64,000 nucleotides of DNA, from positions 1 through 64,000 of IMG/VR virus record IMGVR_UViG_3300001336_000003, one strand, 5' to 3'. Shown in pieces: positions 9,574 through 63,326 of the stretch (the stretch's first letter is position 1; every line of letters starts with the position of its first letter). Below the pieces are notes generated by a model. The model made no database searches and was not told the DNA's origin. It saw nothing but the letters and a program-made list of their open reading frames with translations. Source of the stretch: a virus (taxonomy: Duplodnaviria; Heunggongvirae; Uroviricota; Caudoviricetes). Made by a program: the position numbers and the translations under genes.

Positions 9574-10312
9574 TAAGTATTTTATCTATATTCCGATTCT
9601 ACTGTTTCTTTTGCTATTATATATTCTTTTATTAGGTTCGATCTGACAATATCATCAATGCCGAATTCAATAATGTCGAAAGACGGAATTTTTCTAGCAA
9701 TTTTGATGAATTTACTAAGACCAGAAATGTCTGCTCTATTTTTTGACAAAATCAAGTCATCTTGCTTAACGTCGCCATTCTTGAATTGTCACCAACACGT
9801 GTCATGATTGTGTTGATTTCACTGTCTGTCATGTTCTGACATTCGTCCACAATGATGATTGAATTGTCGAATGTCAAACCCCTGATAAAAGATGTGCTCA
9901 TAAATTTTATCATGCCTTTTTGCTTCATTATTGTATAGCCGTCACCCCTTTCGAAGAGATTGTTTGTAATGTCGATATATGGCATTTCGAAGTTGGCCAT
10001 CTTTTCGTTAGCACTACCGGGCATGTGTCCCTGTTCCCTTGATTGAACAGATGAACGAATGATTATTATTTGTTTATAGTCTCCTGTTACTGCCATTACG
10101 TCTTTAAGTGCCAAATATAAAGAAATGTATGTCTTACCTGTCCCCGCACTACCGATTGCCAAGATATGATTTCCTTCTCTATATGATTGGAACAACTTGT
10201 CTTGGTTTTGTGTTATCGGATTTATTCGCTTCATAACGAATCTATTGTTGACAAGATAATCGGTTTCTCTTACTACTTGGGTGCGCTTGCGCTTTGGAAG
10301 ACGTTTTGTCAT
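9572..10312 (-). pseudogene. phoH: phoH (PhoH-like ATPase) interrupted by a frameshift near 9776
   Basis: 186-aa ORF has Walker A AIGSAGTGKTY and IIVDECQNMT, ends ...TRVGDNSRMATLSKMT*. PhoH C-terminus (GDVKQDDLILSKNRADISGL...FGIDDIVRSNLIKEYI) continues in the +1 frame to a stop at 9572. Confidence 0.7.
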
Positions 10313-10480
10313 GAAACCTCCTTTATCGACTTCAAAGATTCTGTTCTCCTTAGAAGTCGTTTATTGTGTTATATTTTTGATGAGAAAGTGGATGAGCGAT
10401 AATCATCGCAAATGTATATGTTTCAATAAGTTGTAGTTTAATATATACCATACAAACACTCCTTTCCACATAGCTATTTA

Positions 10481-10555
10481 TATAAATATAGTTGTTAGTC
10501 GCGGTGCTGGAACACCCACTAACTCTATGTTGATTAAAAAAGGAGCAACACAGCT
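10481..10555 (+). promoter_or_regulatory. homing-endonuclease cassette leader: late promoter TATAAATA + GTCGCGG box + hairpin + CCCACTAACTCTA + AAAGGAG RBS
   Basis: conserved at 7 loci (see findings). Confidence 0.65.
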
Positions 10556-11389
10556 ATGACTATTTATCTTTACATCAAAAAACACAAAATAACAGGTTTA
10601 AAATATCTGGGTATAACTTCACAAGAAGACCCTCACAAATATACTGGTTCGGGTAAAAGATGGTTAAGACATCTTAAAAAACATGGATACGAATATACGA
10701 CTGATATTCTACTCGCCACAGAAAACAAAAAAGACATTGAAAGAACTGGGTTATTTTTTTCTATGTTGTGGAACATAGTAAAAAGCAGTGATTGGGCAAA
10801 TTTGACGGAAGAACGCGGGAATGGTGGTGACATGGGGTTTTCGGGTCTGGCGTCCACCAGAGAAAAAATGAGTAATTCGCACAAGAAAAAAGTAAAAGAA
10901 GGGACACATCATCTTTTATGTGGCGACATACAAAAACAATCAAATAAAAAAAGAATTGATGAGGGGACGCATAATTTATTAGGTAATAATAACCCATCGC
11001 ATAAAAGAGTTGCAGATGGAACACATCACTTTTTGGATATAAGCTGGCAAAAGAGTGTAGCAAAAAGTAGAACTCAGAAAGCTATAGATAACGGAAACCA
11101 CTATTTTTCATCAGATTTAGGAAAAGAAAATTTGAAAGCTTATCAACAAAAAAGAGTTGTTGAAGGAAGTCATAATTTTTTAGGTGAAAAAAATCCATCA
11201 CATGATAGAATAAAGAATAAAACACATAATTTTCTAGGCTCAATTTCATGTAGAGATAAGACAGGCAATTGCGTTCAAATTTCAAAAGATATATACTATC
11301 GTCAAACAGGCCCAATGGAAGATTGGGAATATGTTGTAGTTCGTTCCAAAGAAGGCAAAAAAAGAAAAGAACTTCTTACCAAGTGTTGA
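10556..11389 (+). CDS. free-standing homing endonuclease-like (IY-YLG / YxGSG N-domain, NUMOD-like GTHHxLG repeats)
   Basis: MTIYLYIKKHKITGLKYLGITSQEDPHKYTGSGKRWLRHLKKHGYEY; paralog of 41596..42237 and fragment 21700..21903; repeats EGTHHLL/EGTHNLL/DGTHHFL/EGSHNFL/NKTHNFLG. Confidence 0.6.
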   Translation: MTIYLYIKKHKITGLKYLGITSQEDPHKYTGSGKRWLRHLKKHGYEYTTDILLATENKKDIERTGLFFSMLWNIVKSSDWANLTEERGNGGDMGFSGLASTREKMSNSHKKKVKEGTHHLLCGDIQKQSNKKRIDEGTHNLLGNNNPSHKRVADGTHHFLDISWQKSVAKSRTQKAIDNGNHYFSSDLGKENLKAYQQKRVVEGSHNFLGEKNPSHDRIKNKTHNFLGSISCRDKTGNCVQISKDIYYRQTGPMEDWEYVVVRSKEGKKRKELLTKC

Positions 11390-21623: not shown

Positions 21624-21699
21624 TATAAATAAAAGTGTCGTTCACGGATTTCGTGGTGGTTATCCCAACGACTCTAAAAACAGCAAAGGAGTTTCCAGC
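21624..21699 (+). promoter_or_regulatory. homing-endonuclease cassette leader (TATAAATA ... GTTCACGG hairpin ATCCCAACGACTCTA ... AAAGGAGTTTCCAGC)
   Basis: same architecture as 10481, 23746, 34340, 41569, 46140, 53248. Confidence 0.6.
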
Positions 21700-21903
21700 A
21701 TGGATTATTTATATACGCATATAGAACATACACGACTTTATATAAAACAGTGCTCACACTGTGATTTGAAATATTTTGGCAAATCAGTCAGAAGAGACAT
21801 AGAAGATTATGAAGGTTCAGGTATTAAATGGAAGAATCATCTTAAAAAACATGAAGCAAACATCCAAATAAACAGAAATGGGTGTGTCAAGAGACAGGCT
21901 TAG
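21700..21903 (+). pseudogene. 5' fragment of a homing-endonuclease gene (67 codons of the YxGSG-type N-domain) with intact cassette leader
   Basis: MDYLYTHIEHTRLYIKQ..DYEGSGIKWKNHLKKHE parallels 10556 and 41596 N-termini but stops after 67 aa. Confidence 0.5.
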
Positions 21904-22318
21904 TTTCAACTAAATCAGGTTTCACTTGCCGTGCAAGAGCAAGGGGAATGGATAAATGGCCTCACGAATTAGTAAAATGTGATAATTAACCACCCATAGG
22001 ATGAACTTCTACCTTTTTATCCTTCATGTCATATTCCATGTTGTCAAGTTCTTTTGAACAGACAATACATGGTATTTTATTGTTTGTTTTCATTCGCTTT
22101 CCTCTATTAGTTTTTCGATTTCACGCCTAACAAAATGAAAACTTTCTGGTTCTGCGTTATCAAGCAAGTCGTGCGCTTGCCTAAGACCAGCAACATACGC
22201 TTTCTTCATTGATTCAAGAGCATCAAGTTCTGTATCGGCATTAACATCCATACTATTATAACCCAACCATTGATACCAGTTCATCCTTTTGTTCCTCATA
22301 GTTTAGCATATTTTGATT

Positions 22319-22724
22319 TTAGCGATTATACCACAAAATGTATTTTGTTTCAAGAGGTATTTTTGCGCCGCCCAATACTGTATAATCAGAAGGCCATATG
22401 TGGTTCCCTTCGTAATCCATACCATCTACAATTTCAATAATTTTGTAGTTTTCATCTACCGCACTTCCATAACCATCATAGTCAATGAAACCACCATCTT
22501 CACAACATTCTTTCCATTCATCTAATGGAATTAGATTCCTTCTGGAATGCCCAATTTTATGGTCAATCCAAGGTGTGTCAAATCGGTCTTTTTGTTTGTG
22601 GTTTTCATTTATCCATTAATGCCACACTTCCCAAAGACTTTATCTCGAAAAGAAAATCCGCATCAACAGGCGATTCAGGACCGCCATCTTTAGCTTTACG
22701 CATTAACACATCAGCATATATCAT
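22319..22724 (-). pseudogene. unknown gene apparently split by a +1 frameshift at about 22605 (39-aa ATG-started fragment + 95-codon stop-to-stop continuation)
   Basis: manual translation: MIYADVLMRKAKDGGPESPVDADFLFEIKSLGSVALMDK* then, one base over, ENHKQKDRFDTPWIDHKIGHSRRNLIPLDEWKECCEDGGFIDYDGYG...KYILWYNR*; preceded by a 45-aa TM peptide ORF (22723..22862) whose stop overlaps the ATG. Confidence 0.35.
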
Positions 22725-22854
22725 TTAGATCATAAACCCAACAAGAATACCCAAACCGAACACGCCTACAAGCGCACCAATCACATACCAAAATGCTGGA
22801 CCTAAAAGCATCATAGCACCAAAAACTACAAGGACAGGAAATTCGATAATTTTT

Positions 22855-23136
22855 TTAAGCATTTTCATCTCTCGCTTCACTCACATAGAATACGGGTTCG
22901 TAGTCTACTTCGAAGCTATAATACGATACTTTTCCCGATTCGTCAATAGCAATAATACGGTCAGAAGAATTTTTCATCCATTCCCATCCGTCACAATTGC
23001 TATAAAGATGATCGCAATATTCTTTTAATTCGTAGTCCAACCAATCTGGTTCGCATACAATTTCCCAATCTGGTTCGAAATCATCGACATAATCACTTTC
23101 AAGACATACTTTATACTTCATTCCATATCCATCCAC
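22855..23136 (-). CDS. acidic hypothetical protein
   Basis: ORF track. Confidence 0.35.
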   Translation of the reverse strand: MDGYGMKYKVCLESDYVDDFEPDWEIVCEPDWLDYELKEYCDHLYSNCDGWEWMKNSSDRIIAIDESGKVSYYSFEVDYEPVFYVSEARDENA

Positions 23137-23678
23137 TTCACAAGTTCTTCATACTTTTCAGTTTTAGTCACGCTTTTAGCAATATGATCCAGAACCAAAG
23201 GACGCAAATCTTTACCGTCAAGAACAGAAAAGATGAAACGCGCATCTTGCTTATGAATCAAGTTAGGCACAAATTTAATAGCAACTTCTTTCTTGTCACC
23301 ACCATGCAGGGTTTTTGCAAGCAAAACCAAACCTTCAAGACGACCCAAGACATTATCCAAAGCAACTTTGAAACGGGTTTCATAGTCTTTTACAGTCTTG
23401 ACATCTTCTTCATCCAGAATAGGAATCAAATCATCCATTTCTTCGTTTACGATAATGTTAAGAATATGACGTTCAGTGCGAATCGCATCTTTCACCTTAT
23501 GTATCATCACGTATTGATCTGCTTTAATTTTAATTTTGTGTCCATCTGAAAAACTTATAATAAATCCTTCCGCGCCTTTAAGACTGCGTGTGTAATCAAT
23601 TAATATATTTACATTATCAAATGGTTCTATTACATCAACCACAGGAATGCGAAATTCTTTTATTTTTTCTAGTAGCAT
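23118..23678 (-). CDS. rnlA: RNA ligase 1 (RnlA) C-terminal half, separately translated
   Basis: EGFIISFSDGHKIKIKADQYVMIHK matches T4 Rnl1 [25 protein letters not shown]; own RBS tggagatgacctATG. Confidence 0.75.
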   Translation of the reverse strand: MLLEKIKEFRIPVVDVIEPFDNVNILIDYTRSLKGAEGFIISFSDGHKIKIKADQYVMIHKVKDAIRTERHILNIIVNEEMDDLIPILDEEDVKTVKDYETRFKVALDNVLGRLEGLVLLAKTLHGGDKKEVAIKFVPNLIHKQDARFIFSVLDGKDLRPLVLDHIAKSVTKTEKYEELVKWMDME

Positions 23679-23745
23679 AGGTCATCTCCATTTTCATTTG
23701 AGTTCATAATATACTAATTTTATGGGAATGTCAATTGCTATTTCG

Positions 23746-23820
23746 TATAAATAGTAACGTAGTTCACGGGATATGTGAGAGTCTCCCCAACTACTCTATA
23801 ACAACAAAGGAGTTACAGCT
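23746..23820 (+). promoter_or_regulatory. homing-endonuclease cassette leader
   Basis: TATAAATA, GTTCACGG, hairpin, CCCCAACTACTCTA, AAAGGAGTTACAGCT ATG. Confidence 0.6.
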
Positions 23821-24822
23821 ATGACTATTTATCAACCTTACTTTTATATAATTCAAGAAATATCTACTGGAATGTATTATGCTGGTGCGAAATGGGCGAA
23901 AGACGCAAATCCTAATGATTTTTTAACCCCAAATGGTTATCACACCTCTTCAAAATTAGTTAAATATCTAATCGAAAAAAACGGATTGCAATCATTTAAG
24001 ATTCGAAAAATAAAAACTTTTGCAAATATGTATGATACATATGAATATGAAACAAAATTTCTAAAAAAAGTAAACGCCAAAAGTAATTCTTGTTTCTTAA
24101 ATGGGCATGAAAATAATTGGGGTGTGACGGACAATACGAACATGGTTTCAGTAAAAAACAAAAGTGGTGAAAATTTTAAAGTTAGAGTAGATGACCCCAG
24201 ATACAGATCGGGAGAATTTTTCCACAACACCAAAGGAAAAGTTGTGGTAAAGGATGAAAATGGAAATACGTTTCAAATATGTGTTGATGATCCTAGATTC
24301 ATCACAAAAGAATTGCAACACGTTTCAAAAGGGACGACTGTCGCTTTGGATACCGTTACGGGCAAAGTTAAAAGAGTTTCCACAGATGATTTCAACCAAA
24401 CAAAAAATTTAGTCGGTATTTGTAACGGTTTCGTTCCTGTAATGGATACTTACGGGAACAAGTTCTCGGTTAATAGGGGTGACGTAAGATTTGAAACGGG
24501 TGAAATAAAGCATGTTACAAAAGGTAGGGTTACTGTAAAATCTACAGATGGTAAAACTATGAGTATATATACCACTGATCCGAGATATACATCTGGTGAA
24601 TTGGTTCACAATACTACTGGAATGGTAAGTGTGAAGGATAAACATGGCAATACAATGCAAGTTAGTAAAAAAGACCCAAGATACATTTCAGGCGAATTAG
24701 TCGGGGTTTCAAAAGGCATAAAAAGAACACCTCAAATAACAAAATGCCCGCATTGCAGCAAGAGCGGCGCTATGTCTCAAATGAAAAGATGGCATTTCGA
24801 AAATTGTAAGATGTTGCGGTAA
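23821..24822 (+). CDS. homing endonuclease-like protein with tandem about 22-aa repeats and C-terminal Cys finger, inserted inside rnlA
   Basis: IYQPYFYIIQEISTGMYYAGAKWA N-domain (paralog of 53328); 7-8 repeats of VxVKDxxGNTxxVxxDDPRYxSGELVH; C-terminal CPHCSKSGAMSQMKRWHFENCK. Confidence 0.6.
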   Translation: MTIYQPYFYIIQEISTGMYYAGAKWAKDANPNDFLTPNGYHTSSKLVKYLIEKNGLQSFKIRKIKTFANMYDTYEYETKFLKKVNAKSNSCFLNGHENNWGVTDNTNMVSVKNKSGENFKVRVDDPRYRSGEFFHNTKGKVVVKDENGNTFQICVDDPRFITKELQHVSKGTTVALDTVTGKVKRVSTDDFNQTKNLVGICNGFVPVMDTYGNKFSVNRGDVRFETGEIKHVTKGRVTVKSTDGKTMSIYTTDPRYTSGELVHNTTGMVSVKDKHGNTMQVSKKDPRYISGELVGVSKGIKRTPQITKCPHCSKSGAMSQMKRWHFENCKMLR

Positions 24823-24823
24823 A

Positions 24824-25414
24824 TTACCGCAACATCAAATACTTTCCAGTGATATTATGCCTAACCGAAAGAAGTGTCAATTGTTCCTCTTTATATGTAA
24901 TTACGATTTTGTTGTTTGGGCTGGTCCACTCGAAAATGGGGGTTAGTTGTTCACGTATACACCAAGCAGCAAAGTCCTTATATCTGGTATTTTTTTCAAT
25001 AAATTCTTCTGCTTGCATTGCCACTTCTGTGATGCCCATCTTAGTCATCCAACGAATTTCGCCATTGACCTTCATAGGATGTAGCATCGAACCATCTCGT
25101 TTTTCTTCTATAAAATGTGGTTTGGTCATGTCAATATTACGGATCAACGTTTCTTCTTTTTCATTGACATTAAACCATTTATGAAAGGGTCGTGCTGCAA
25201 TTTCGCCATTTGGTGAAAATTTTATGCCACGACATTCTCTTTTTATTGCGCCCTTGGTATCATCTGGTCCGCTCATATCAAATGTATCACTTGTTGCTAC
25301 CACATAATTGACAACAAAACCAAAGTCACGCTCTGCAATGATAAATTCATCACGACCAGCAATAGCAGGGCGCACATCATCAATGTGACGAATTTCGGGA
25401 AATTTGTATTTCAT
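24824..25414 (-). CDS. rnlA: RNA ligase 1 (RnlA) N-terminal half with KxDG adenylation motif
   Basis: [26 protein letters not shown] vs T4 [38 protein letters not shown] vs [40 protein letters not shown] vs [33 protein letters not shown]. Confidence 0.8.
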   Translation of the reverse strand: [196 protein letters not shown]

Positions 25415-34339: not shown

Positions 34340-34417
34340 TATAAATATGTTAGTCGCGGTACTACCAATACCCACTAACTCTAGAACCTGTCAACCTTAA
34401 AGAAGGAGTTCCAGCAC
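34340..34417 (+). promoter_or_regulatory. homing-endonuclease cassette leader
   Basis: TATAAATATGTTAGTCGCGGTACTACCAATACCCACTAACTCTAG...AAGGAGTTCCAGCAC ATG. Confidence 0.65.
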
Positions 34418-35263
34418 ATGGATATTTATTCCATATTGGCTTCAAAGCCTCACAATACGCACTACTTAAATAGATATATTAGATTTATTAAGCAATGTCA
34501 ACATAAAAACGTCAATCATAATGGATATGCCGAAAAGCATCATATTTGTCCCAAAGCCAAAGATATGTTTCCCGAATACGCATCTTTTAAAAAGAACAAG
34601 TGGAACCTTTCACTACTTACGCCAAGGCAACATTTCATAGCTCATATACTACTGTGGAAATCATATCCAAATATAGCCAGTATGACATATGCTGCTCATT
34701 CCATGCGAAATTATCAAGACACCAAAGTAAATAGCAGATTATACGAAAATTTGAAGATAGAATTTATAAAAACGCAGTCTACTAGGACTCACAAACAACA
34801 TCTAAACATGTCTATCGAAGAAAAGAATAAAATATCCGATAAAATTTCCACAAATTCTAAAAATTTAGTTCAGGCAAAAACCAAAGAAGGGTTGACTGTA
34901 AGGATAGCAAAAACAGAATTTGATAATAGTGTAAACTATGTTGGTCACACCAAAGGAATGACCACTGTGAAAGATGCTGATGGAAGGTTTCATTTTGTTT
35001 CTGTAGACGATCACAGAATAAAGTCTGGCGAACTTGTTGGACCCAATACTGGAAAAACTTTTAGTGAAGAAGTTAGAAAAAAGTTAAGAAAAGTCAGAAA
35101 GGGAAGAAAACATACAGAAAAAGCAAAGATGAAAATGAGAAAGCCTAAAGGACAACAGAAAAAATTAATATGCCCTTATTGTGGAAAGTGTGGTGGCGCA
35201 TCAAACATCAAAAGATACCACTATGAAAATTGCAAAAATGCAATTGTTGAACAGTTATCATGA
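34418..35263 (+). CDS. HNH homing endonuclease-like protein with the cassette-shared repeat unit and C-terminal Cys finger
   Basis: HNH core EKHHICPK....LTPRQHFIAH; one copy of VKDADGRFHFVSVDDHRIKSGELVG repeat; C-terminal CPYCGKCGGASNIKRYHYENCK. Confidence 0.7.
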   Translation: MDIYSILASKPHNTHYLNRYIRFIKQCQHKNVNHNGYAEKHHICPKAKDMFPEYASFKKNKWNLSLLTPRQHFIAHILLWKSYPNIASMTYAAHSMRNYQDTKVNSRLYENLKIEFIKTQSTRTHKQHLNMSIEEKNKISDKISTNSKNLVQAKTKEGLTVRIAKTEFDNSVNYVGHTKGMTTVKDADGRFHFVSVDDHRIKSGELVGPNTGKTFSEEVRKKLRKVRKGRKHTEKAKMKMRKPKGQQKKLICPYCGKCGGASNIKRYHYENCKNAIVEQLS

Positions 35264-39135: not shown

Positions 39136-39432
39136 TTAGTAACGCTCAACCGTAGAAGGAACATATTCTTGTTCTTTCAAAGCCGCACGATTACGGATTT
39201 CTTCAAAAGAATCATCTACAAGAAGTTCACCATCCCTGAAAACAGTGCGGAGAATATTACCTTTTTTCTCCGCAACTTCTTTAGGAACAGTGTGATATCC
39301 ACACGAACCGACACCACATTCGTATACCAACCCCAAACGACCTTTTTTGGAAATTTTTCCTTTGTCGGTAATAGGGTCTTTGAACACGTCATGCCACGTA
39401 CCTTCTGCATCTTGTCTTGCCGATGCTTTCAT
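39136..39432 (-). CDS. hypothetical protein behind late promoter + leader hairpin
   Basis: TATAAATA on minus at 39500..39507, 9-bp hairpin GGTGTGTCC/GGACACACC 39475..39497, RBS aaaggagg. Confidence 0.4.
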   Translation of the reverse strand: MKASARQDAEGTWHDVFKDPITDKGKISKKGRLGLVYECGVGSCGYHTVPKEVAEKKGNILRTVFRDGELLVDDSFEEIRNRAALKEQEYVPSTVERY

Positions 39433-39793
39433 AGCATAACGTAGCCATTGCTAAACCTCCTTTAGCTATTTTTAGGTGTGTCCTCACTGGACACACCCTT
39501 ATTTATACGTTATTATTCTTCGTCTACTAGCAGTTCGATAAGTTTTTCTGCGGCTATCGTCGCATCTTCTGCCATATTCATTGAAGAAAACCCCATAGTA
39601 TTAACGACCACCATAGAGGCATACGCGATGCCTAACATTTCATCAACGTCAATTTCATTATCTTCCAGCATAGTAAGGAATTCTTCCATCTTTTGTGCAG
39701 AAATTGTATTAATTTTTTTAACGCGAGAATCTACTTCATCCAATTCATTAATTTCATCATCGATATTCATTTCTTCGGTCATTTTATATCCTT

Positions 39794-41568: not shown

Positions 41569-41595
41569 TATAAATAAGTATGGTTCGCGGATTTC
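41569..41595 (+). promoter_or_regulatory. homing-endonuclease cassette leader (TATAAATA..GGTTCGCGG hairpin ATCCCAACCATTCTAG..AAAGGAGTTCCAGC; extends into remnant ORF)
   Basis: same motif order as other cassettes. Confidence 0.6.
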
Positions 41596-42237
41596 TTGGC
41601 AGGCATCCCAACCATTCTAGAAACACAAAGGAGTTCCAGCATGCATTATTTATATGTAAAAACACATAATAAAACGGGTTTAAAATATTTAGGAAAGACA
41701 AAATCTAAAGATCCATTTAAATATAGGGGTTCAGGAAAATACTGGAAACGGCATATTAATAAGCACGGTTATGATGTCACAACTCAAATATTACTTGTTA
41801 CTGAAAACAAAGAAGAATTAAAGCAAACTGGCCTATTCTTTAGTAAATTATGGAATATAGTAAAATCACGAGAATGGGCAAATTTGAAATTGGAAAATGG
41901 CGATGGGGGTTGGGATCATATAATATTAAAGGGTAGAACTTTTTCAGATGAAACTAAAAGAAAAATGTCAATATCTGCTATCGTAAGACAAACTGGTGAA
42001 ACAAATTCATTTTACGGAAAAACACATTCTGATGAAACTAGAAAATTGATTGGAGAACATAGTAAAGAAAGAGGTAAAGAGCAATATACAAAAAGAATAA
42101 ATAATGGCACTCATCCTAACAACAAAAGTGTATGCCCTCATTGCAATAAAATTGGACAATATAGAGCAATGAAAAGATGGCATTTTGATAATTGTAAATT
42201 ACTTAACTCTTTGGTTGTCTTCCATCAGGCCACTTAA
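41596..42237 (+). CDS. free-standing homing endonuclease-like (YxGSG-type N-domain, NUMOD3-like units, C-terminal Cys finger)
   Basis: MHYLYVKTHNKTGLKYLGKTKSKDPFKYRGSGKYWKRHINKHGYD close paralog of 10556; GKTHSDETRKLI unit; CPHCNKIGQYRAMKRWHFDNCK. Confidence 0.65.
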   Translation: MAGIPTILETQRSSSMHYLYVKTHNKTGLKYLGKTKSKDPFKYRGSGKYWKRHINKHGYDVTTQILLVTENKEELKQTGLFFSKLWNIVKSREWANLKLENGDGGWDHIILKGRTFSDETKRKMSISAIVRQTGETNSFYGKTHSDETRKLIGEHSKERGKEQYTKRINNGTHPNNKSVCPHCNKIGQYRAMKRWHFDNCKLLNSLVVFHQAT

Positions 42238-46139: not shown

Positions 46140-46212
46140 TATAAATATAAGTGCCAGTCGCGGTTGCCGCCAAGAAACCCACTGACTCTATGTTTAGTAA
46201 CCCAAAGAGAGG
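46140..46212 (+). promoter_or_regulatory. homing-endonuclease cassette leader
   Basis: TATAAATATAAGTGCCAGTCGCGGTTGCCGCCAAGAAACCCACTGACTCTATG...GAGGAACACAGCAC ATG. Confidence 0.65.
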
Positions 46213-47089
46213 AACACAGCACATGTATATTTATCTGATACGCAATATCATCAATGACAAGATTTATATTGGTCAAACTACAAAAACACCCGAAAAAAGA
46301 TTTAGGCAGCATGTATACACAAGTAAAAGACTAAAGACACAACTATATAACTCTATGAACAAATACGGCGAAGAAAATTTCATAGTAGAAGTTCTGGAAG
46401 TTGTTCAGGACAAGAGCCTTCTAGACCCAAGGGAAATATATTGGATAGCGGAACTGGAGCCAGAGTATAACATGACTATAGGTGGCCAAAGAAGTAGTAC
46501 CACAGAAAAATACACGGAAGAGCGTAAACGCGAAAGATCGGCAAAAAGTTCCGCTTCCATAAAAAAGATGTGGGATTCCATGAGTGAAGATGAACGCAAA
46601 GAACGCATGAAAAAAACCCACGCAAAAACAGATTACAAATCACATTCTGATAAACTTTCGGTTTCTAGAAGAAGATTTTTTACGAATGAAACTGAAGAGC
46701 AGAAAGCAATTAGAATAGAAAAAGCTAAAATAGGTGCCAAGAAAACAGAAAAAATCAAATGTCATTATTGTGATCAGGAAATTGGTGGTGGTAAATATAA
46801 TCTAGTAAAACACGAAGAAGTATGCTCAAAAAATCCATCATCAAAAAATTTTGGGAAAAGCACAAAAAAGAAACAACCTTATAGCTATACAATACTAGAT
46901 CCAAACAATACAAAGCATATAACATCATCATTTAAGGGATTTTGCAAAACACACAATCTTTCAAGATATTTGCTTATGAAAAATATTGGAAGTGTAGTTG
47001 AAAGCGTTGACGCTAAAACTAATAACGCCAACGCAACAACAATAAATACCTTTGGGTGGTGTTTACTTAGGATTGATGATCTGACTTAG
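46151..47089 (+). CDS. GIY-YIG homing endonuclease with NUMOD3-like repeats and C-terminal Cys finger
   Basis: YIYLIRNIINDKIYIGQT..RFRQH..LYNSMNKYG..NFIVEVLE..REIYWIAELEPEYN is the canonical GIY-YIG domain; TEERKRERSAKSS/ERKERMKKTHAKT units; CHYCDQEIGGGKYNLVKHEEVC. Confidence 0.85.
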   Translation: MPVAVAAKKPTDSMFSNPKRGTQHMYIYLIRNIINDKIYIGQTTKTPEKRFRQHVYTSKRLKTQLYNSMNKYGEENFIVEVLEVVQDKSLLDPREIYWIAELEPEYNMTIGGQRSSTTEKYTEERKRERSAKSSASIKKMWDSMSEDERKERMKKTHAKTDYKSHSDKLSVSRRRFFTNETEEQKAIRIEKAKIGAKKTEKIKCHYCDQEIGGGKYNLVKHEEVCSKNPSSKNFGKSTKKKQPYSYTILDPNNTKHITSSFKGFCKTHNLSRYLLMKNIGSVVESVDAKTNNANATTINTFGWCLLRIDDLT

Positions 47090-53247: not shown

Positions 53248-53327
53248 TATAAATAATAATATAGGTCGCGGAGTACCAGTCCCACCTATTCTACGTTTAT
53301 AGCTTTAGAAAGAAAGGAACGCAGCTT
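53248..53327 (+). promoter_or_regulatory. homing-endonuclease cassette leader
   Basis: TATAAATAATAATATAGGTCGCGGAGTACCAGTCCCACCTATTCTACG...AAAGGAACGCAGCTT ATG. Confidence 0.6.
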
Positions 53328-54371
53328 ATGGCTATTTATTCACCATACACATATCTTATCGGATGGTCAAGACTTAATACGTGGTATTATGGCGTAAGAT
53401 ATGCAAGAAAAAGTCAATGTCTTTATGAAAGTGGTTGTCATCCAGACGAACTTTGGGTCACTTATTTCACATCTTCGAAACATGTTAAAGATTTCAGGGA
53501 AAAACATGGCGAGCCAGATGTTATACAAGTCAGGAAAACTTTTCCATCAGACTCCTCAAAATCACAAGAAGACGAAAAAGAACTTGCACGAAGCGCTCTT
53601 CTTTGGGAAGAAAAAATTCTTATTCGTGTAGGTGCTATACATAAGGATATGTGGATCAACAAGAGCATCGCAGGTCATTTCAGGACCACAGAGAGTAACC
53701 CCAATCCACTAAAGGGTAAAACATACGAAGAAGTATATGGAGTTGAAAAATCAGAAGAGTGGAAACACGCGACGAGTATCGCCAGCCAAAAATTTTGGAA
53801 TTCAGATGCAGGTAAAGAAAGAAAAAAATACCTATCTGAAAATATAAGTGAAAACTTTACCACTCTTGGCATAGAACCAGTGTGTAAAATTAAAGATACT
53901 TTTATTCATGTATGTGAGATATGTGGCGAGTTTAATAAAAGAAGAAAAACAGCAGGTGAGTTGAAAAAGAAAACTTGCGGTAGCAAATCGTGTGCAATAA
54001 AATGGTTCTATAAATACAATCCAGAAGCAGCAAAATCTAAAATGCCTCCAACAAAGTTCACTACTATAGGCCACGAACCAGTAAATAAAATCACCGATAC
54101 ATTTCTATGGAAGTGCGTTGTGTGCGGGGTTTCATGCGTAAAGCGTGATACAATAAAAAATAGAAACAAGATAACATGTGGCAAATCTTGTGCAGCAACT
54201 TACAACAACCGAAAAAGAGTAGAAAACGGATATACAAAACAAGGTTCAACGTATAAACACAAAGGTAAAAAGTTTTTAATAACCAATGGTTATGAAACAG
54301 CATTGTTAGAAAAAGGCGACCAGATTCCACAAGGATGGGAATCTGGTCGCCATTGGAAACCAAAAGGTTAG
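53328..54371 (+). CDS. free-standing homing endonuclease-like protein (IY-YLIG N-domain, two Zn-ribbon repeats)
   Basis: MAIYSPYTYLIGWSRLNTWYYGVRYA paralog of 23821 N-domain; repeats IEPVCKIKDTFIHVCEICG / HEPVNKITDTFLWKCVVCG each followed by CGxxCA. Confidence 0.6.
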   Translation: MAIYSPYTYLIGWSRLNTWYYGVRYARKSQCLYESGCHPDELWVTYFTSSKHVKDFREKHGEPDVIQVRKTFPSDSSKSQEDEKELARSALLWEEKILIRVGAIHKDMWINKSIAGHFRTTESNPNPLKGKTYEEVYGVEKSEEWKHATSIASQKFWNSDAGKERKKYLSENISENFTTLGIEPVCKIKDTFIHVCEICGEFNKRRKTAGELKKKTCGSKSCAIKWFYKYNPEAAKSKMPPTKFTTIGHEPVNKITDTFLWKCVVCGVSCVKRDTIKNRNKITCGKSCAATYNNRKRVENGYTKQGSTYKHKGKKFLITNGYETALLEKGDQIPQGWESGRHWKPKG

Positions 54372-56857: not shown

Positions 56858-58525
56858 CTAAACTGCCATAGGTGCTTTAATTGTTGGGTGGCACTGATAA
56901 TTTTTAAGTGTAAACATATTTACCGTATTAAAATTGAATCCGTATGTCAAACCTTTAGACAAAACAAAGTCTTCTGATATTTCTAATGTTGGTAGAGGAT
57001 ATTCTTTTCTCGTAAGTTGTTCCCGAACCTGTTCAATATGATTATTATATATGTGTGCATCACCTATGGAATATACGAGTTCACCAACTTGCATATTAAC
57101 TTCTCTAGCCAAAATATGAATAAGAAGTGCATATGAAGCAATGTTGAAAGGCGCACCCAAAAATGCGTCATTTGATCTCATTGTTAACATCCCGCTTAAT
57201 TTGTTCTCTCTGACAATAAGTTGAAAGAAACAGTGGCATGGTGGTAGTGCTTGCATATCTATAACCGTAGGATTCCATGCTGACAATATGATTCTTCTTG
57301 ATTCGGGTTCGTTTTTTATTTGGTTTATTATATTTACGATTTGGTCGGCCACCACCTTTTTACGAAATACATGTCCATTAGAAGCTTGAATATATTTTAG
57401 ACTATACCCATTATAACTTTCACCTGTGTCTAACAAATAAGAAATCCTCGCCAGTGTCAAATCATCTATGCTATTGCATATGTCTGTTTTATACAGATAG
57501 TCTTTGTATGTATCATAGTGGAAAACTCTTATTTTTCTATGATGGTCTACTTGTTTATTGGCTATTGCCAAGTTCATCTTTTTTGGTAGAAATATGCAAG
57601 TGTGTTTAGAATAGATGTCAGAGCAATAGTAATCTTTATCCAATTCGTAGTCATTATTCATCTTAACCCATTCATAAAATCCTGGGATTTTATCTATGTC
57701 TAGTAAAAAATTCTTAAAATCCATCCAACTATCAGAAACACGAACACCCCTAGCCCCATAATTTCTATAACTTAGATGTTTTTTATTATAGCATCTATCT
57801 ATCATATGAATCCATAGTTTATATGCTTTCTTATAGTAAGATGGTTTATCACCTCTGAATGAATTGTTTGCCACCCCCTTAATCAAAGGGTTGAGGCAAA
57901 TCTTCTTAGGTATATTACTTCCTAAAATTTTAGTCAATTCACCCGTATCTAGTGCTTGCGCTATGTAAGTTTTTCGATATTTGTCGTTGCTGCACAGACC
58001 TAATATTTTAATGGGTCTACCAGATTTAGATGTAAATCTATAGCCCGTATATTTGTGTCCATCGCCGTAGTCTGCAAATTCAATAACTTCTTTAGCCGTA
58101 TCTATCGTTTCTTTGCGTTCTGGAACTTCTGTAATTTGTTCGCTGGCAGAATACCAATTTCTCCACATACTGCCATACACAGGACCAAGAAGCCCTATAG
58201 ATTCGATAGAATCATACCCTAAATTTTTTCCTTGGTGTATTAGATTATCTGTCCATATCGTTTGTTTACCTACCAATTCCTCACGGGGTTTGCCATATGT
58301 CAATTCAGCAAGTCGTCTTTCATCTGTGCCGCCTTCAAGAAACCATAACAATTCACCCACAACAGATTTCCATGCGAGTTTCTTTGTGGTGACGGCTGGA
58401 AACCCATCGTTCAAATCAAATCGCATCTGATAACCAAAAACAGAACGTGTTCCAACACCAGTTCTATCTTCAACATCAACACCATTTTCCAAGACGTGTC
58501 TAATCAAATCATGATATTGTTGCAT
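56858..58525 (-). CDS. td: thymidylate synthase ThyA carrying an in-frame about 265-aa insertion that contains an HNH-endonuclease motif
   Basis: N-terminus DRTGVGTRSVFGYQMRFDL..FPAVTTKK..LLWFL..LGPVYGSMWRNW and C-terminus SRRIILSAWNP..ALPPCH.FFQ..RSNDAFLGAPFNIASYALL..GDAHIY match ThyA; middle has KLWIHMIDRCYNKKHLSYRNYGARGVRVSDSWMDFKNF (phage HNH family). Confidence 0.85.
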   Translation of the reverse strand: MQQYHDLIRHVLENGVDVEDRTGVGTRSVFGYQMRFDLNDGFPAVTTKKLAWKSVVGELLWFLEGGTDERRLAELTYGKPREELVGKQTIWTDNLIHQGKNLGYDSIESIGLLGPVYGSMWRNWYSASEQITEVPERKETIDTAKEVIEFADYGDGHKYTGYRFTSKSGRPIKILGLCSNDKYRKTYIAQALDTGELTKILGSNIPKKICLNPLIKGVANNSFRGDKPSYYKKAYKLWIHMIDRCYNKKHLSYRNYGARGVRVSDSWMDFKNFLLDIDKIPGFYEWVKMNNDYELDKDYYCSDIYSKHTCIFLPKKMNLAIANKQVDHHRKIRVFHYDTYKDYLYKTDICNSIDDLTLARISYLLDTGESYNGYSLKYIQASNGHVFRKKVVADQIVNIINQIKNEPESRRIILSAWNPTVIDMQALPPCHCFFQLIVRENKLSGMLTMRSNDAFLGAPFNIASYALLIHILAREVNMQVGELVYSIGDAHIYNNHIEQVREQLTRKEYPLPTLEISEDFVLSKGLTYGFNFNTVNMFTLKNYQCHPTIKAPMAV

Positions 58526-61046: not shown

Positions 61047-63326
61047 TCAAGCATCATCCGAAAAGAAATTATCTAGCGTAGTCTTTTTTTGGACAGCTTC
61101 TATCCTTGCTTTCGCAATTTCAATATATTCTGGATCAAGTTCAATACCAATGAAGTCGAACCCTTCAAGTTTTGCGGCTTTGCCAGTCGAACCAGAACCC
61201 ATGAAAGGATCAAGAACAGTTCCATTAGGTGGAGTTACAAGTTTCACAAGATAGCGCATTAGTTCTGTTGGCTTCACCGTAGGATGATTATTTTTGGAAG
61301 GTATGAAAGGTCTATTTGCTCTTTCTGGAACCGCAGCACCTTCATGTTTCCATTCCTTGTCAGGAAGATTTTCCAAACCCTCATTGCGATCTTTCTTGGA
61401 AGTCTTGGCACAGTAAAAGAAACGGGCAGCGGAACCTTCGTCATTGTAATTGCTAGGTGATTGTGGTTTATCGCCATTAAACATGGAAGTATCTTTGTTG
61501 TCATACTCGTTTCCAGCATAAGAATATACACCTTTGTTATTACCAGAACCAGTTTTTGGAAACAACTCTGTCACTTCTTCACTACCATCATGAATGAGGT
61601 TGGCGGGGAAACGACCAACGCTGTCGTCCACCTTAGCCCGTTCGGTTATGCCTCCGTTGTGAAGCGCAGTACTCCCTGCGCAACCCCCGCTAGTTTTCTT
61701 CGTGCCGTTCAAATCAACTCTACTTTCATCAATATTGATGCCACCTGTGCCATACTTTAACACATTAGCAGCAACAGTATTTTCACTTAGTGGCTTTCTT
61801 GCAACAGTGATCGGTTCTAATGCGGGCTTTAGAGCAGTTCCCCAACCATTCCATTTTTTGGCTTCATCTGTAGCGGGTGCAGTTATTTGAATAACATTTT
61901 TTGCACTTTTGTCTTCTGAATTTCCAGTATATGCGTTTGGCCTAAATCCGTGTTCTGCATTAGTTTTAGAAATGTGAGCCATTCCGCCAGAGTTTGTTTT
62001 TGTCTCTGATATAATTTCGCGTTCTGCACCAGACATTTTATCAATAGCTTTACTAATATCCAATGACTTCGGAAATCCGCTTCCATAACCCCATCCCACC
62101 ATTCCATCACGACCAAATGTAGCATCAAAAAGCTTCATCTGTTCTGGAGTCAAAGATTCAAAAAGTTGTTGGGCTGTGGTATTAGTATCATATAGATATG
62201 TGACCATATCACGAATTTCAAAACCAGCATCTTCAATGTTGACTGCCATCCTATGTTGCGTCCTAGTGCCAGCAAATGCCAACAAATGACCGCCGGGCTT
62301 CAAGACTCGCAAACATTCTTGCCAAATTTCAGTAGTAGGGACGTCATAATCCCATTTTTTACCCATAAAACCACTGGAATTTGTATAAATATCAGATACA
62401 GATTTAAGTAAATTTTTAGGAACATAAAGATGCAAAAAATACTCAGAACTTGTCCCGTTTGCAGTATCCAATATGAAGCCGACCCTAACAGGCTGAAGCA
62501 CGGTAGACAAACTACTTGCAGCAAGGTTTGTTCTTACAATCTTAGGTCTGATAAAATTAGAAAAAGTGTTACTCTTGAGTGTGGTAATTGCGGCACTGGA
62601 ATAATCAGAAGCCCTAGTCAAATCAAAAGTAAGCACGGGCACATCTTCTGTTCCATTTTCTGTAAGAGTGAAGCTATGAGCAAAGGAATCATCCCCCATG
62701 TTATCACTACCCCATACAATATCAGGAACCCCATCCCTGAAGATAGGAAAAGGGAAATCCATTCCAGAATTTGGGAAACAAGAAGAAAAAATGGAACTGA
62801 TAGGCACACTAAAGAAACCATACGAAAATTGTCCGAAATTACCACTAAAAACATCGTCAGCGGTAAAATCAATAGAATTTCCAAAATCGAATATGAAGTT
62901 TCCGATAAACTTACTTCCATTGGCGTCAAATTTATCCCTCAATATGGTATCAGGGATATGAAAACTGGAAGATACTGTGCTTCTGTCGATTTCTATCTCC
63001 CTGACTTCAACATTGCCGTCGAAGTAAATGGGACTTTCTGGCATAGAGACCCTAGATTTTATGATAGGAATAGTCTCACACCTGCTCAAATCAGAACACA
63101 TACTAGATTTGAAAGAAAAGTCGCTATATTGGATTCTCTTAATATCACTCTCGTAGAAATTTGGGAGCATGATATTAAAACTTTTCCAGACAGCTTTATT
63201 GACCCTCTTATAAAGGTTATCGCCTAAACCATAAGGGGGATCTGTAACAATGCTATCCACACTGTTATCTGGTAATTCTTTCATCTTATCAAGGCAATCG
63301 CCAAGCATCAATTTAACTTCAGTCAT
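61047..63326 (-). CDS. large beta-class DNA methyltransferase whose ORF runs in frame through an antisense-inserted endonuclease cassette
   Basis: SVDSIVTDPPYGL (aa 24-34), then about 290 aa Ser/Phe-rich low-complexity region, then IWQECLRVLKPGGHLLAF, long TRD, LDPFMGSGSTGKAA; paralog of 59725..60408. Confidence 0.8.
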   Translation of the reverse strand: MTEVKLMLGDCLDKMKELPDNSVDSIVTDPPYGLGDNLYKRVNKAVWKSFNIMLPNFYESDIKRIQYSDFSFKSSMCSDLSRCETIPIIKSRVSMPESPIYFDGNVEVREIEIDRSTVSSSFHIPDTILRDKFDANGSKFIGNFIFDFGNSIDFTADDVFSGNFGQFSYGFFSVPISSIFSSCFPNSGMDFPFPIFRDGVPDIVWGSDNMGDDSFAHSFTLTENGTEDVPVLTFDLTRASDYSSAAITTLKSNTFSNFIRPKIVRTNLAASSLSTVLQPVRVGFILDTANGTSSEYFLHLYVPKNLLKSVSDIYTNSSGFMGKKWDYDVPTTEIWQECLRVLKPGGHLLAFAGTRTQHRMAVNIEDAGFEIRDMVTYLYDTNTTAQQLFESLTPEQMKLFDATFGRDGMVGWGYGSGFPKSLDISKAIDKMSGAEREIISETKTNSGGMAHISKTNAEHGFRPNAYTGNSEDKSAKNVIQITAPATDEAKKWNGWGTALKPALEPITVARKPLSENTVAANVLKYGTGGINIDESRVDLNGTKKTSGGCAGSTALHNGGITERAKVDDSVGRFPANLIHDGSEEVTELFPKTGSGNNKGVYSYAGNEYDNKDTSMFNGDKPQSPSNYNDEGSAARFFYCAKTSKKDRNEGLENLPDKEWKHEGAAVPERANRPFIPSKNNHPTVKPTELMRYLVKLVTPPNGTVLDPFMGSGSTGKAAKLEGFDFIGIELDPEYIEIAKARIEAVQKKTTLDNFFSDDA
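62384..62391 (+). promoter_or_regulatory. late promoter TATAAATA of the embedded endonuclease, located inside the methyltransferase ORF
   Basis: TTTGTATAAATATCAG...taggaacataaagATG. Confidence 0.55.
62430..63227 (+). CDS. Zn-ribbon + Vsr/DUF559-like PD-(D/E)XK endonuclease (homing-endonuclease-like), embedded antisense within the methyltransferase gene
   Basis: CPVC..CSKVC and CGNCG..CSIFC zinc ribbons; nuclease core RYCASVDFYLPDFNIAVEVNGTFWHRD ... LVEIWEHD. Confidence 0.75.
   Translation: MQKILRTCPVCSIQYEADPNRLKHGRQTTCSKVCSYNLRSDKIRKSVTLECGNCGTGIIRSPSQIKSKHGHIFCSIFCKSEAMSKGIIPHVITTPYNIRNPIPEDRKREIHSRIWETRRKNGTDRHTKETIRKLSEITTKNIVSGKINRISKIEYEVSDKLTSIGVKFIPQYGIRDMKTGRYCASVDFYLPDFNIAVEVNGTFWHRDPRFYDRNSLTPAQIRTHTRFERKVAILDSLNITLVEIWEHDIKTFPDSFIDPLIKVIA

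Follow-up and report, generated by a model that had tools for sequence, protein, structure and literature searches.

Homing endonuclease genes (HEGs) are the main mobile elements of T4-like phages. To our knowledge, how they are silenced until late and tolerated between essential genes is known from just a few laboratory cases, whose hairpins are idiosyncratic and differ from case to case. Here we analyze a sequence element that lies ahead of such genes in a 64,000-nucleotide stretch of DNA from an uncultured T4-like myovirus (IMG/VR record IMGVR_UViG_3300001336_000003, positions 1 to 64,000; "the window" below means this whole stretch). Seven sites in the window, the first at 10481-10567 (+), are copies of one portable control module of free-standing HEGs, 85-95 bp in length. 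An initial annotation of the DNA had described them as HEG leaders sharing one hairpin. The module contains more than that hairpin, and selection for its fold appears to act chiefly on the complement of the gene strand.

The closest described systems come from phage T4 and its relatives. The T4 late promoter is an 8-bp box located about one helical turn upstream of the start, from -13 to -6; early and middle transcripts all have one polarity, but those made late can have either (PMC2988020). Late promoters of this type require no -35 element. Inhibitory hairpins that contain the late promoter silence the read-through RNA of T4 gene e, of I-TevI and of mobE of phage Aeh1, and have been suggested for segB (PMC3014915). 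In e, I-TevI and mobE, the 5' arm of the hairpin is at or upstream of the late start (PMC3014915). Throughout the group that can be assembled around these cases (e, soc, I-TevI, I-TevII, I-TevIII, mobE, and segB), the initiation region is complementary to sequence located at the late start or upstream of it, and only the transcripts from the late promoter are predicted to be translatable (PMC3014915). The module has this complementarity, and translation of late-promoter transcripts alone would apply to it as well.

Three other systems are relevant. In environmental T4-like loci, including "fractured genes", from ocean metagenomes, Dassa et al. (2009) found a hairpin upstream of the start of free-standing HEGs in 15 of 16 cases, ten of which included TATAAATA (PMC2677866). 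The hairpins have two conserved, mutually complementary motifs, one is retained even in a locus that lost its HEG, and the invading element was proposed to bring control signals for the broken gene (PMC2677866). The PeSL (promoter-early stem-loop) and PmSL cassettes are short, repeated, conserved units of promoter and stem-loop between variable T4-like genes, and they too were proposed to be portable regulatory modules and points of genetic exchange (PMC4122927). CfrI of cyanophage S-PM2, the first antisense RNA reported in T4-like phages, is antisense to an HEG with which it is co-expressed (PMC2984593).

In the module, the order of elements is the late box TATAAATA, a spacer of 3-5 nt, the first arm of helix P1 (6 bp), a C-R-C bulge, hairpin P2 (GGnn/nnCC), a single C, the return arm of P1 and a T, followed by hairpin P3 (CTA...CAG), 1-4 nt, ATG, 0-4 nt, and an inverted late box, TATTTAY. 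In copy 1, all of whose elements are given here on the + strand, the late box is at 10481-10488, the spacer at 10489-10493 (1-5 nt among the window copies), and the outer helix P1, GTTAGT/ACTAAC, at 10494-10499 and 10518-10523. The bulge is CGC (10500-10502), P2 is GGTG-CTGGAA-CACC (10503-10516), and the single C and T are at 10517 and 10524. P3 (10525-10553; CTATGTTG ... CAACACAG) pairs CTA-TGTTG with CAACA-CAG around a conserved A.C mismatch and has the Shine-Dalgarno AAGGAG in its loop. The link and start codon follow at 10554-10558, with ATG at 10556-10558 (the link is 1-3 nt in the window copies), and the inverted box TATTTAT, the reverse complement of ATAAATA, is at 10561-10567 (2-3 nt past ATG in the window copies). 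The initial annotation had the stem halves (GGTG/CACC and its counterparts) right, and these form P2. It took that hairpin for the whole structure, missing P1 and P3 as well as the inverted box, and placed the end at 10555 instead of 10567. Its shared motifs AAAGGAG and TTCCAGC are only partly conserved, except for CAGC, which is invariant and pairs with the invariant TCTA in P3, around the A.C mismatch.

We built a covariance model, R1, of 73 positions and 17 pairs, trained on 86 distinct related leaders. Applied to the window with filters off, R1 finds exactly seven sites, scoring 50.8-70.9 bits (E 4.8e-21 to 3.5e-14), and the next-best match reaches at most 11.7 bits. The box TATAAATA occurs 20 times in the window against 5.1 expected and is exact at all seven modules. 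A strict pattern for the order of elements has three matches, compared with 0.00 expected from 100 shuffles. The seven + strand sites and their common order, as first annotated, are confirmed.

The genes behind the modules differ. Copy 1 (10481-10567, from late box to inverted box; 67.1 bits, E 9.7e-20) is ahead of an HEG at 10556-11389; copy 3 (23746-23832; 70.9 bits) is ahead of one at 23821-24822 that splits the gene for RNA ligase 1; copy 4 (34340-34429; 62 bits) is ahead of one at 34418-35263 that matches a homing/HNH endonuclease in PHROG; copy 5 (41569-41653; 67.8 bits) precedes a NUMOD3 gene at 41641-42237; copy 6 (46140-46234; 50.8 bits) precedes a GIY-YIG gene at 46223-47089; and copy 7 (53248-53339; 56.2 bits) precedes an HEG at 53328-54371 without a Pfam or PHROG match. 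Copy 2 (21624-21712; 65.4 bits) is intact and stands ahead of an open reading frame (ORF) of only 67 aa at 21700-21903, after which come two short + strand ORFs at 22313-22525 and 22525-22728; this looks like a decaying endonuclease gene that retains its complete module. In all, five of the seven window ORFs have an endonuclease match in Pfam or PHROG, the exceptions being copy 7 and the truncated copy 2, and four copies match PHROG homing or HNH endonucleases.

The module belongs to a large family. Two pattern scans of IMG/VR, made disjoint by design (T versus non-T before TCRCGG), gave at least 120 and at least 118 loci, of which R1 confirmed at least 117 and at least 118 as modules, at least 96 and at least 106 of them distinct. 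Among bacterial genomes there were 13 pattern matches; eight are true modules, all in contigs of metagenome-assembled genomes (MAGs) assigned to assorted phyla, and these contigs are probably mis-binned phage. A pattern match in a Psychrobacter isolate was not confirmed by the covariance model and was set aside. Together, IMG/VR and the MAG contigs hold more than 200 distinct copies. Cultured phages gave none: neither megablast with the first locus nor blastn with a 90-nt consensus found a module among 50,697 phage records, and the window itself has no nucleotide match in these records. Rfam 15, whose families include small ribozymes, tRNA-like elements, and HEARO, gave no match to the whole window at the gathering score, and nothing meaningful for two modules searched on both strands at E <= 10. 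Many related contigs hold two to four modules within a few kb (L006, L018, L026, L059, L084, L088, L095, L117, L123, L125, L129, L131, L138, L139, L156, L161, L171, L175, L179, L181, L183, L184, and L218), indicating that multi-copy carriage, as in the window with its seven, is common in this phage group.

The fold is supported by covariation in two sets of related modules, one from each IMG/VR scan (sets 1 and 2). Standard pairs fill 94.0% of the cells in set 1 and 93.9% in set 2, and changes on both sides are seen at 15 and 14 of the 17 pairs, respectively. Compensatory cells number 298 and 491, compared with 66 and 134 after shuffling and with 13-25 and 34-64 in slid controls. The covariation scores are 0.49 and 0.63, against 0.13 and 0.15 for the shuffled data and at most 0.08 for the slid controls. 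P1 is 98-99% paired with changes on both sides in 5-6 of its 6 pairs, and occurs as GTAGTT/AACTAC, ATGGTT/AACCAT, GTGATT/AATCAC, GACCTT/AAGGTC, and ATAGGT/ACCTAT, among others. An alignment by MAFFT only gives the same covariation picture. The stem covariation first noticed among the seven copies is far stronger with more than 200 further copies, and the stems remain complementary.

Two boxes bound the module, because the information content drops to background directly upstream of TATAAATA and directly past TATTTAY. The upstream box is exact in 91 of 96 related modules and is GATAAATA, AATAAATA, or CTAAATA in the remainder; its distance to P1 is 5 nt in 61 and 3 nt in 24 of 100 modules. The inverted box ends up 6-8 nt from the end of P3 in 77 of 87 measured copies, and 0-12 nt from ATG in 84 of 90 (0-4 nt in 76 of 90). 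It falls in codon phases 2, 0, and 1 in 56, 22, and 12 ORFs, encoding I-Y, Y-L, or (I/L/V)-F, and all three phases occur within a single protein family (YVYAYLR...YYIGKG). Where a new upstream ATG is used (L037, L045, L088), CAGC and TATTTAT persist within the coding sequence. The inverted box is thus a nucleotide-level element.

What the inverted box does could be explained if, as ATAAATA on the opposite strand, it were itself a late promoter. It would then produce a discrete cis-antisense small RNA of about 75 nt, beginning at the base of P3' (the prime denotes the opposite-strand helix), with two hairpins, an anti-Shine-Dalgarno loop, and a U-rich 3' end complementary to the HEG promoter, and this RNA would repress HEG translation or stability in an antitoxin-like way. 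The module indeed has mirror symmetry, with box, 6-8 nt, and helix on the opposite strand answering to box, 3-5 nt, and helix on the gene strand. The boxes of the family tolerate NATAAATA, which is the cyanophage late consensus (PMC2984593), and GATAAATA and AATAAATA are found upstream of true modules; TATTTAT, equal to NATAAATA, is the form of the inverted box in about two-thirds to four-fifths of copies. CfrI provides a precedent for an HEG-linked antisense RNA in a cyanophage, and folding favors the opposite strand (below). However, about one-fifth or more of the recognizable inverted boxes are TATTTAC, TACTTAT, or TATTTAA, reading GTAAATA, ATAAGTA, or TTAAATA as promoters, and such deviant forms are rare in gene-strand boxes (about 2 among about 200 modules). 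A simple terminator scan does not flag the hairpin and U tract that this RNA would have. Nor is the box consensus enriched where the neighboring gene lacks room for a promoter and would need one (35/51 versus 16/19 and 85/105), and on this ground the box was also rejected as the promoter of that neighbor. A discrete small RNA of this kind is, in our estimate, quite unlikely.

The strand on which the fold is selected can be judged from substitutions and from folding energies, and both point to the strand opposite the HEG. Among non-Watson-Crick cells, counted sequence by sequence, A.C/C.A outnumber G.U/U.G by 72 to 14 in set 1 and by 69 to 9 in set 2. When distinct helix variants are counted once, the numbers are 74 and 13, and 13 and 1 for P1 alone. 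The mismatch in P3 is a conserved A.C, and opposite the bulge R there is a C that hardly ever varies. On the complementary strand, A.C mismatches become G.U and the bulge R pairs; RNAalifold predicts this pair only there (GC 49, GU 11). The mean minimum free energy of P3 is -2.2 kcal/mol on the gene strand and -5.3 kcal/mol on the opposite strand in set 1, and -1.8 and -5.9 kcal/mol in set 2, the opposite strand being the more stable in 80 of 86 and 95 of 97 modules, respectively. For P1/P2 the corresponding values are -9.1 and -9.4 kcal/mol (set 1) and -9.3 and -10.5 kcal/mol (set 2), and for the box-to-box fold the means are -16.2 and -20.5 kcal/mol. A helix P0, box on box, is present in the minimum-free-energy fold of 118 of 180 modules on the gene strand and of 163 of 180 on the opposite strand. 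In copy 1, the opposite strand (10481-10568 (-)) is predicted to form a three-way junction of P0, P3', and P1'/P2' at -20.4 kcal/mol, and the six other copies are alike. Because P3 covaries strongly, and is nearly unstable on the gene strand and solid on the other, selection on the opposite strand is the simplest inference.

These data bear directly on the possibility that the module is a leader acting on the sense strand only. P1/P2 would then be a 5'-terminal hairpin of the late HEG mRNA, serving to stabilize that mRNA or to bind a protein or RNase of phage or host, and P3 would present the Shine-Dalgarno. The promoter, the Shine-Dalgarno, and ATG are all on the gene strand, a start at the base of P1 fits a 5' stabilizer, and the conserved bulges (C-R-C and C) resemble a protein-recognition feature. 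P1/P2 is also about equally stable on the two strands, as the set 1 values show. But a sense RNA predicts the opposite of the excess of A.C over G.U that is seen in P1 and overall. The strong covariation of P3 would have to be maintained for a helix of about -2 kcal/mol, the 3-nt spacer in about a quarter of copies puts a T4-like start within P1, and the inverted box is left with no role. We consider a leader working on the sense strand alone unlikely. The initial annotation had spoken of selection on a structure, either an RNA leader or a DNA hairpin; selection on structure stands, while the simple sense-strand leader is probably the wrong strand or half the story. The opposite-strand motif CUGAUG was also considered as hammerhead-like and was rejected, as it lies within a helix, no GAAA junction could be seen by eye, and Rfam gave no ribozyme match.

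The module is portable with respect to the gene it serves. It precedes genes of the NUMOD3, GIY-YIG/SegE, several HNH, DUF7487, and DUF559 families, which agrees with the first impression of different nuclease families downstream. Among 83 related downstream ORFs of at least 100 aa, Pfam matches are to NUMOD3 (28), GIY-YIG (7), SegE (4), HNH families (6, 5, 3, and 1), DUF7487 (3), and DUF559 (1). An identical P1/P2 sequence (...GGAATGGGGATTCC...) stands ahead of at least four protein types (L001, L020, L060, L066). The ORF type of window copy 3 carries in L076 the P2 of window copy 5, and the P2 of copy 3 itself is ahead of other ORF types in L094 and L116. The same P1/P2 with different ORFs, and the same ORF with different P2, mean that the module, and even its halves, reassort independently of the gene. 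The idea of a mobile unit, put forward initially, is upheld by these exchanges and by the sharp edges of conservation.

Exchange of this sort could be the function of the module, if the nested inverted repeats acted as DNA, as single-stranded hairpins, a cruciform, or shared homology that promotes cassette exchange, and not as RNA. The stems are near-perfect palindromes with almost no G.U/G.T intermediates on the gene strand, mosaic copies join different P1/P2 halves to the same P3 and ORF, and the PeSLs provide a precedent (PMC4122927). The P2 loops, moreover, occur in both orientations, which shows that hairpin events at the DNA level do happen. Exact or near-exact reverse complements are GGACCGCCATCC/GGATGGCGGTCC, GGGACTGCAATCCC/GGGATTGCAGTCCC, and GGTGCTGGAACACC versus GGTGTTCCACCACC, and one such pair is formed by window 10503-10516 and L063; they suggest repeated DNA-level inversion of the P2 loop, perhaps by template switching, with little constraint on loop sequence. 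A symmetric double-stranded site or a homology patch, however, predicts neither the asymmetry between A.C and G.T nor conserved asymmetric bulges. Pairing that is kept while sequence changes favors a folded single strand over homology, and sharp boundaries at functional boxes, with constrained spacing, fit signals for transcription and translation. A purely DNA-level role is improbable.

The genomic context gives a reason why RNA from the other strand might matter. From about 3.5 kb to 64 kb of the window the majority of genes are on the minus strand, and all seven modules are on the + strand, each between minus-strand genes and ahead of a + strand ORF. Opposite-strand neighbors are thus on both sides in 7 of 7 window copies. 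In the family, 71 of 89 nearest upstream genes (the other 18 being co-oriented) and 60 of 86 nearest downstream genes have the strand opposite to that of the HEG. In the window, the 3' ends of the HEGs overlap or abut the convergent neighbor. There is consequently no room for a terminator at these ends, and with neighbors on the opposite strand, host-gene transcription must run into the HEG from its antisense side. Past the inverted box, the next opposite-strand ORF starts within less than 20 nt in 57 of 152 callable cases, more than a third, its start codon lying 10-19 nt from the module. In these short-gap cases the Shine-Dalgarno of the neighbor comes directly after TATTTATA, leaving no room for a promoter, and so the complement of the module must be in the neighbor's mRNA. 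A second mode of gaps is at 60-79 nt, and several of these contain a TTGACA-N17-TATAAT promoter, with a window example at 23734-23706 (-).

The same context could suit a terminator, or punctuation, for the opposite strand, in which P1'/P2' and a U-rich tail (A-N3-5-UAUUUAUA) would stop or process antisense early transcripts, often with a fresh early promoter after it, like a PeSL terminator-promoter pair. There is a class of junctions with TTGACA-N17-TATAAT past the module on the opposite strand, as at 23734-23706 in the window; the tail is U-rich by construction, and the opposite-strand fold is the favored one. In the 57 short-gap cases, however, efficient termination would silence the next gene. 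The stem, too, is broken by bulges, the U tract begins 4-6 nt past it, and a simple scan for intrinsic terminators does not flag the module on either strand. We regard termination as very improbable.

The reading that we hold, tentatively and without calling it probable, is that the module makes the cassette self-contained: the start site would be open only in the cassette's own late transcripts, and read-through RNA would fold closed. By analogy with T4, the start site is inferred to be at, or just inside, P1. If the cassette's own late transcript begins at the first base of P1, with the box at -13 to -6 as in T4, it lacks the 5' box because of that start. P3 on the gene strand, barely stable at about -2 kcal/mol, would leave the Shine-Dalgarno and AUG open, and the endonuclease would be made late. 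An RNA that crosses the whole module from outside, on the other hand, would hold both boxes and could close P0 around P1/P2 and P3 as a three-way junction. In sense read-through RNA, this junction would hide the start region, on the same principle as in T4 gene e, I-TevI, and Aeh1 mobE. It would work mainly in the read-through RNA of the host operon, which is mostly antisense, as an end structure that is closed and insulates, just upstream of the next gene's ribosome-binding site. We place the junction in host operon RNA on two grounds: the majority of cassettes lie antisense to the genes around them, and it is on that strand that the fold is the better one and the better conserved. The antisense leader, including its anti-Shine-Dalgarno CUCCUU, would so be kept away from the neighbor's ribosome-binding site and from the HEG mRNA. 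Insertion would become tolerable, and the gene strand would keep a weak, translatable leader. The broader proposal, that the modules encode a widespread, hitherto unrecognized family of structured RNAs antisense to HEG leaders, each a three-way junction of about 90 nt serving as an insulator or a discrete antisense regulator (a "tolerance" RNA), is possible but doubtful.

A number of observations weigh against this picture of a self-contained cassette. Covariation lends no support to P0: its two boxes hardly vary, and their flanking positions do not covary. Four modules with the variant promoter GATAAATA have C, C, T, and T as the eighth base, too few for counting an extension of P0. Thermodynamic z-scores of single sense leaders (-1.5 to +0.3) are not significant, so that support for the structure comes from covariation and not from energy. 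RNAalifold on the MAFFT alignments recovers only P1/P2 on either strand (-13.3 versus -11.1 kcal/mol), because P3 is misaligned. The A.C to G.U asymmetry, 141 to 23 over both sets, counts sequences and not independent events. Selection for a deliberately weak P3 on the sense strand could contribute to it for P3, though not for P1, and strand-biased mutation could also contribute, but seems too weak for a ratio of about 6:1. The anti-Shine-Dalgarno is partly in the loop of P3' and not fully sequestered. Finally, the module is equally conserved with co-oriented neighbors (nine "++" cases) and where the neighbor has its own early promoter, situations in which insulation is less obviously needed. 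As to the sense strand, the Shine-Dalgarno is in the loop or the 3' arm of the weak P3, and P0 covers +4 to +12 and not the Shine-Dalgarno.

Set beside the T4-family lock, the self-contained cassette has the same complementarity, here between TATAAATA and TATTTAY just past ATG, and P0 forms in 118 of 180 predicted sense-strand folds. The promoter's partner differs, being a dedicated inverted box past ATG, and the Shine-Dalgarno is not paired directly to the promoter arm. Two more covarying helices fill the junction, and the element is one conserved family found with many types of nuclease, in many genomes. The majority of cassettes run antisense to their neighbors, and the substitution pattern favors the opposite strand; an upstream neighbor from which sense read-through of the T4 type could come is found in only 18 of 89 cases and in 0 of 7 in the window. 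The motif of Dassa et al. (2009), judged by its description, may be this motif, or a sister of it, seen earlier. There, the HEGs have the orientation of the fractured gene and the hairpin is read on the sense strand only; neither an inverted box nor a three-helix model is reported, nor are statistics of covariation or an analysis by strand (PMC2677866). PeSLs, which have no tie to endonuclease genes, consist of a stem-loop with an early promoter of the sigma-70 type (or a Mot middle one), whereas our module has a late promoter, three helices, the Shine-Dalgarno with ATG, and the inverted box; early-type promoters are found only outside it, on the other strand, and in a subset of cases. CfrI, with a length of about 225 nt, connects psbA with the HEG; it is known from a single locus and has experimental support. 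The putative antisense species considered here would have a length of about 75-90 nt and cover the leader of the HEG, and it belongs to a large sequence family.

Among cultured phages, the closest HEG homologue is in Ochrobactrum phage vB_OspM_OC (L239, Kyanoviridae; MT028491.1, 182248-182991), with 43% amino acid identity. It has the same place as the HEG of window copy 5, antisense and adjoining the metallophosphatase gene. Its leader is not a module (6.6 bits) and has only CATAAATA and a simple hairpin at the ribosome-binding site. This hairpin, CATCAG...CTGATG, encloses the Shine-Dalgarno and the start codon and may be a simpler relative or precursor of P3. The major capsid protein of the window has 61-64% identity with those of Sinorhizobium phage phiM12, Methylophilales phage Melnitz, Stenotrophomonas phage DLP6, and some cyanophages. 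The G+C content is 35-40%, and the window contains no tRNA or tmRNA.

Some loci of the window deserve description in their own right. At 10475-10488, two late boxes are back to back and overlap (TATTTATATAAATA), the minus-strand TATAAATA being at 10475-10482; one would drive the HEG of copy 1 and the other faces a short minus-strand ORF and a PhoH-like gene at 9752-10312. The T4-type RNA ligase 1 gene, rnlA, is split by the antisense HEG of copy 3 into minus-strand ORFs at 24824-25414 and 23118-23678. The N-terminal part matches profile positions 1-152 of RNA_lig_T4_1 and the C-terminal part matches T4_Rnl1_C, so that the locus (23118-25414) is a "fractured gene" without an intein. The promoter at 23734-23706 (-) is of a near-consensus sigma-70 type (TTGACA-17-TATTAT) and is located between the module of copy 3 and the start of the C-terminal part. 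At 56858-58525 (-), a thymidylate synthase ORF of 555 aa is about twice the usual length and has two Pfam-matched stretches, the better one aligning profile positions 100-266 with residues 378-555; this points to about 280 inserted residues, which may be an intein or other embedded element.

Two further loci had been annotated as related elements, and neither belongs to the family. In the non-endonuclease gene at 39136-39507 (-), the segment 39436-39501 (-) scores only 11.6 bits (E about 0.9), and at 62384 there is no R1 match. The first is a 98-aa ORF that matches only the C-terminal end of nicotinamide phosphoribosyltransferase families and has ahead of it TATAAATA and a GC-rich hairpin with a perfect stem of 9 bp (39475-39497); the ORF may be a gene fragment that has a late leader of its own. 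The second is the TATAAATA of an endonuclease ORF of Vsr/PvuRts1I-like or HNH type at 62430-63227 (+). On the other strand, the first approximately 300 codons of a 759-aa ORF (61047-63326 (-)), which ends in a DNA methylase (N6_N4_Mtase), are the antisense of this endonuclease ORF. They have no Pfam match; the frame may be open here by chance, or this part of the 759-aa ORF may be a genuine fusion.

The principle of a late promoter with a regulatory hairpin ahead of phage HEGs was already known, and a conserved hairpin of metagenomic HEG leaders was noted in 2009. As far as our analysis can tell, the three-helix consensus with strong covariation, the inverted late box in all frames, the size of the family, its portability across nuclease families, and its absence from Rfam and cultured phages are new, as is the evidence for antisense-strand selection of the fold. 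In uncultured aquatic phages, one defined module is common to nucleases of the GIY-YIG, HNH, and other types, and its covariance model can be used as it is to annotate cassettes of this kind. Here a regulatory unit clearly moves without being bound to the protein that it serves. The strand-asymmetric substitutions suggest that a selfish element also carries an RNA structure of benefit to the host operon that it interrupts. If true, such a role in host-operon RNA would change the interpretation of endonuclease "leaders": an antisense junction RNA would let the endonuclease cassette sit harmlessly between or inside essential phage genes, and, as a "tolerance" RNA belonging to a mobile element, it would define a new class of function.

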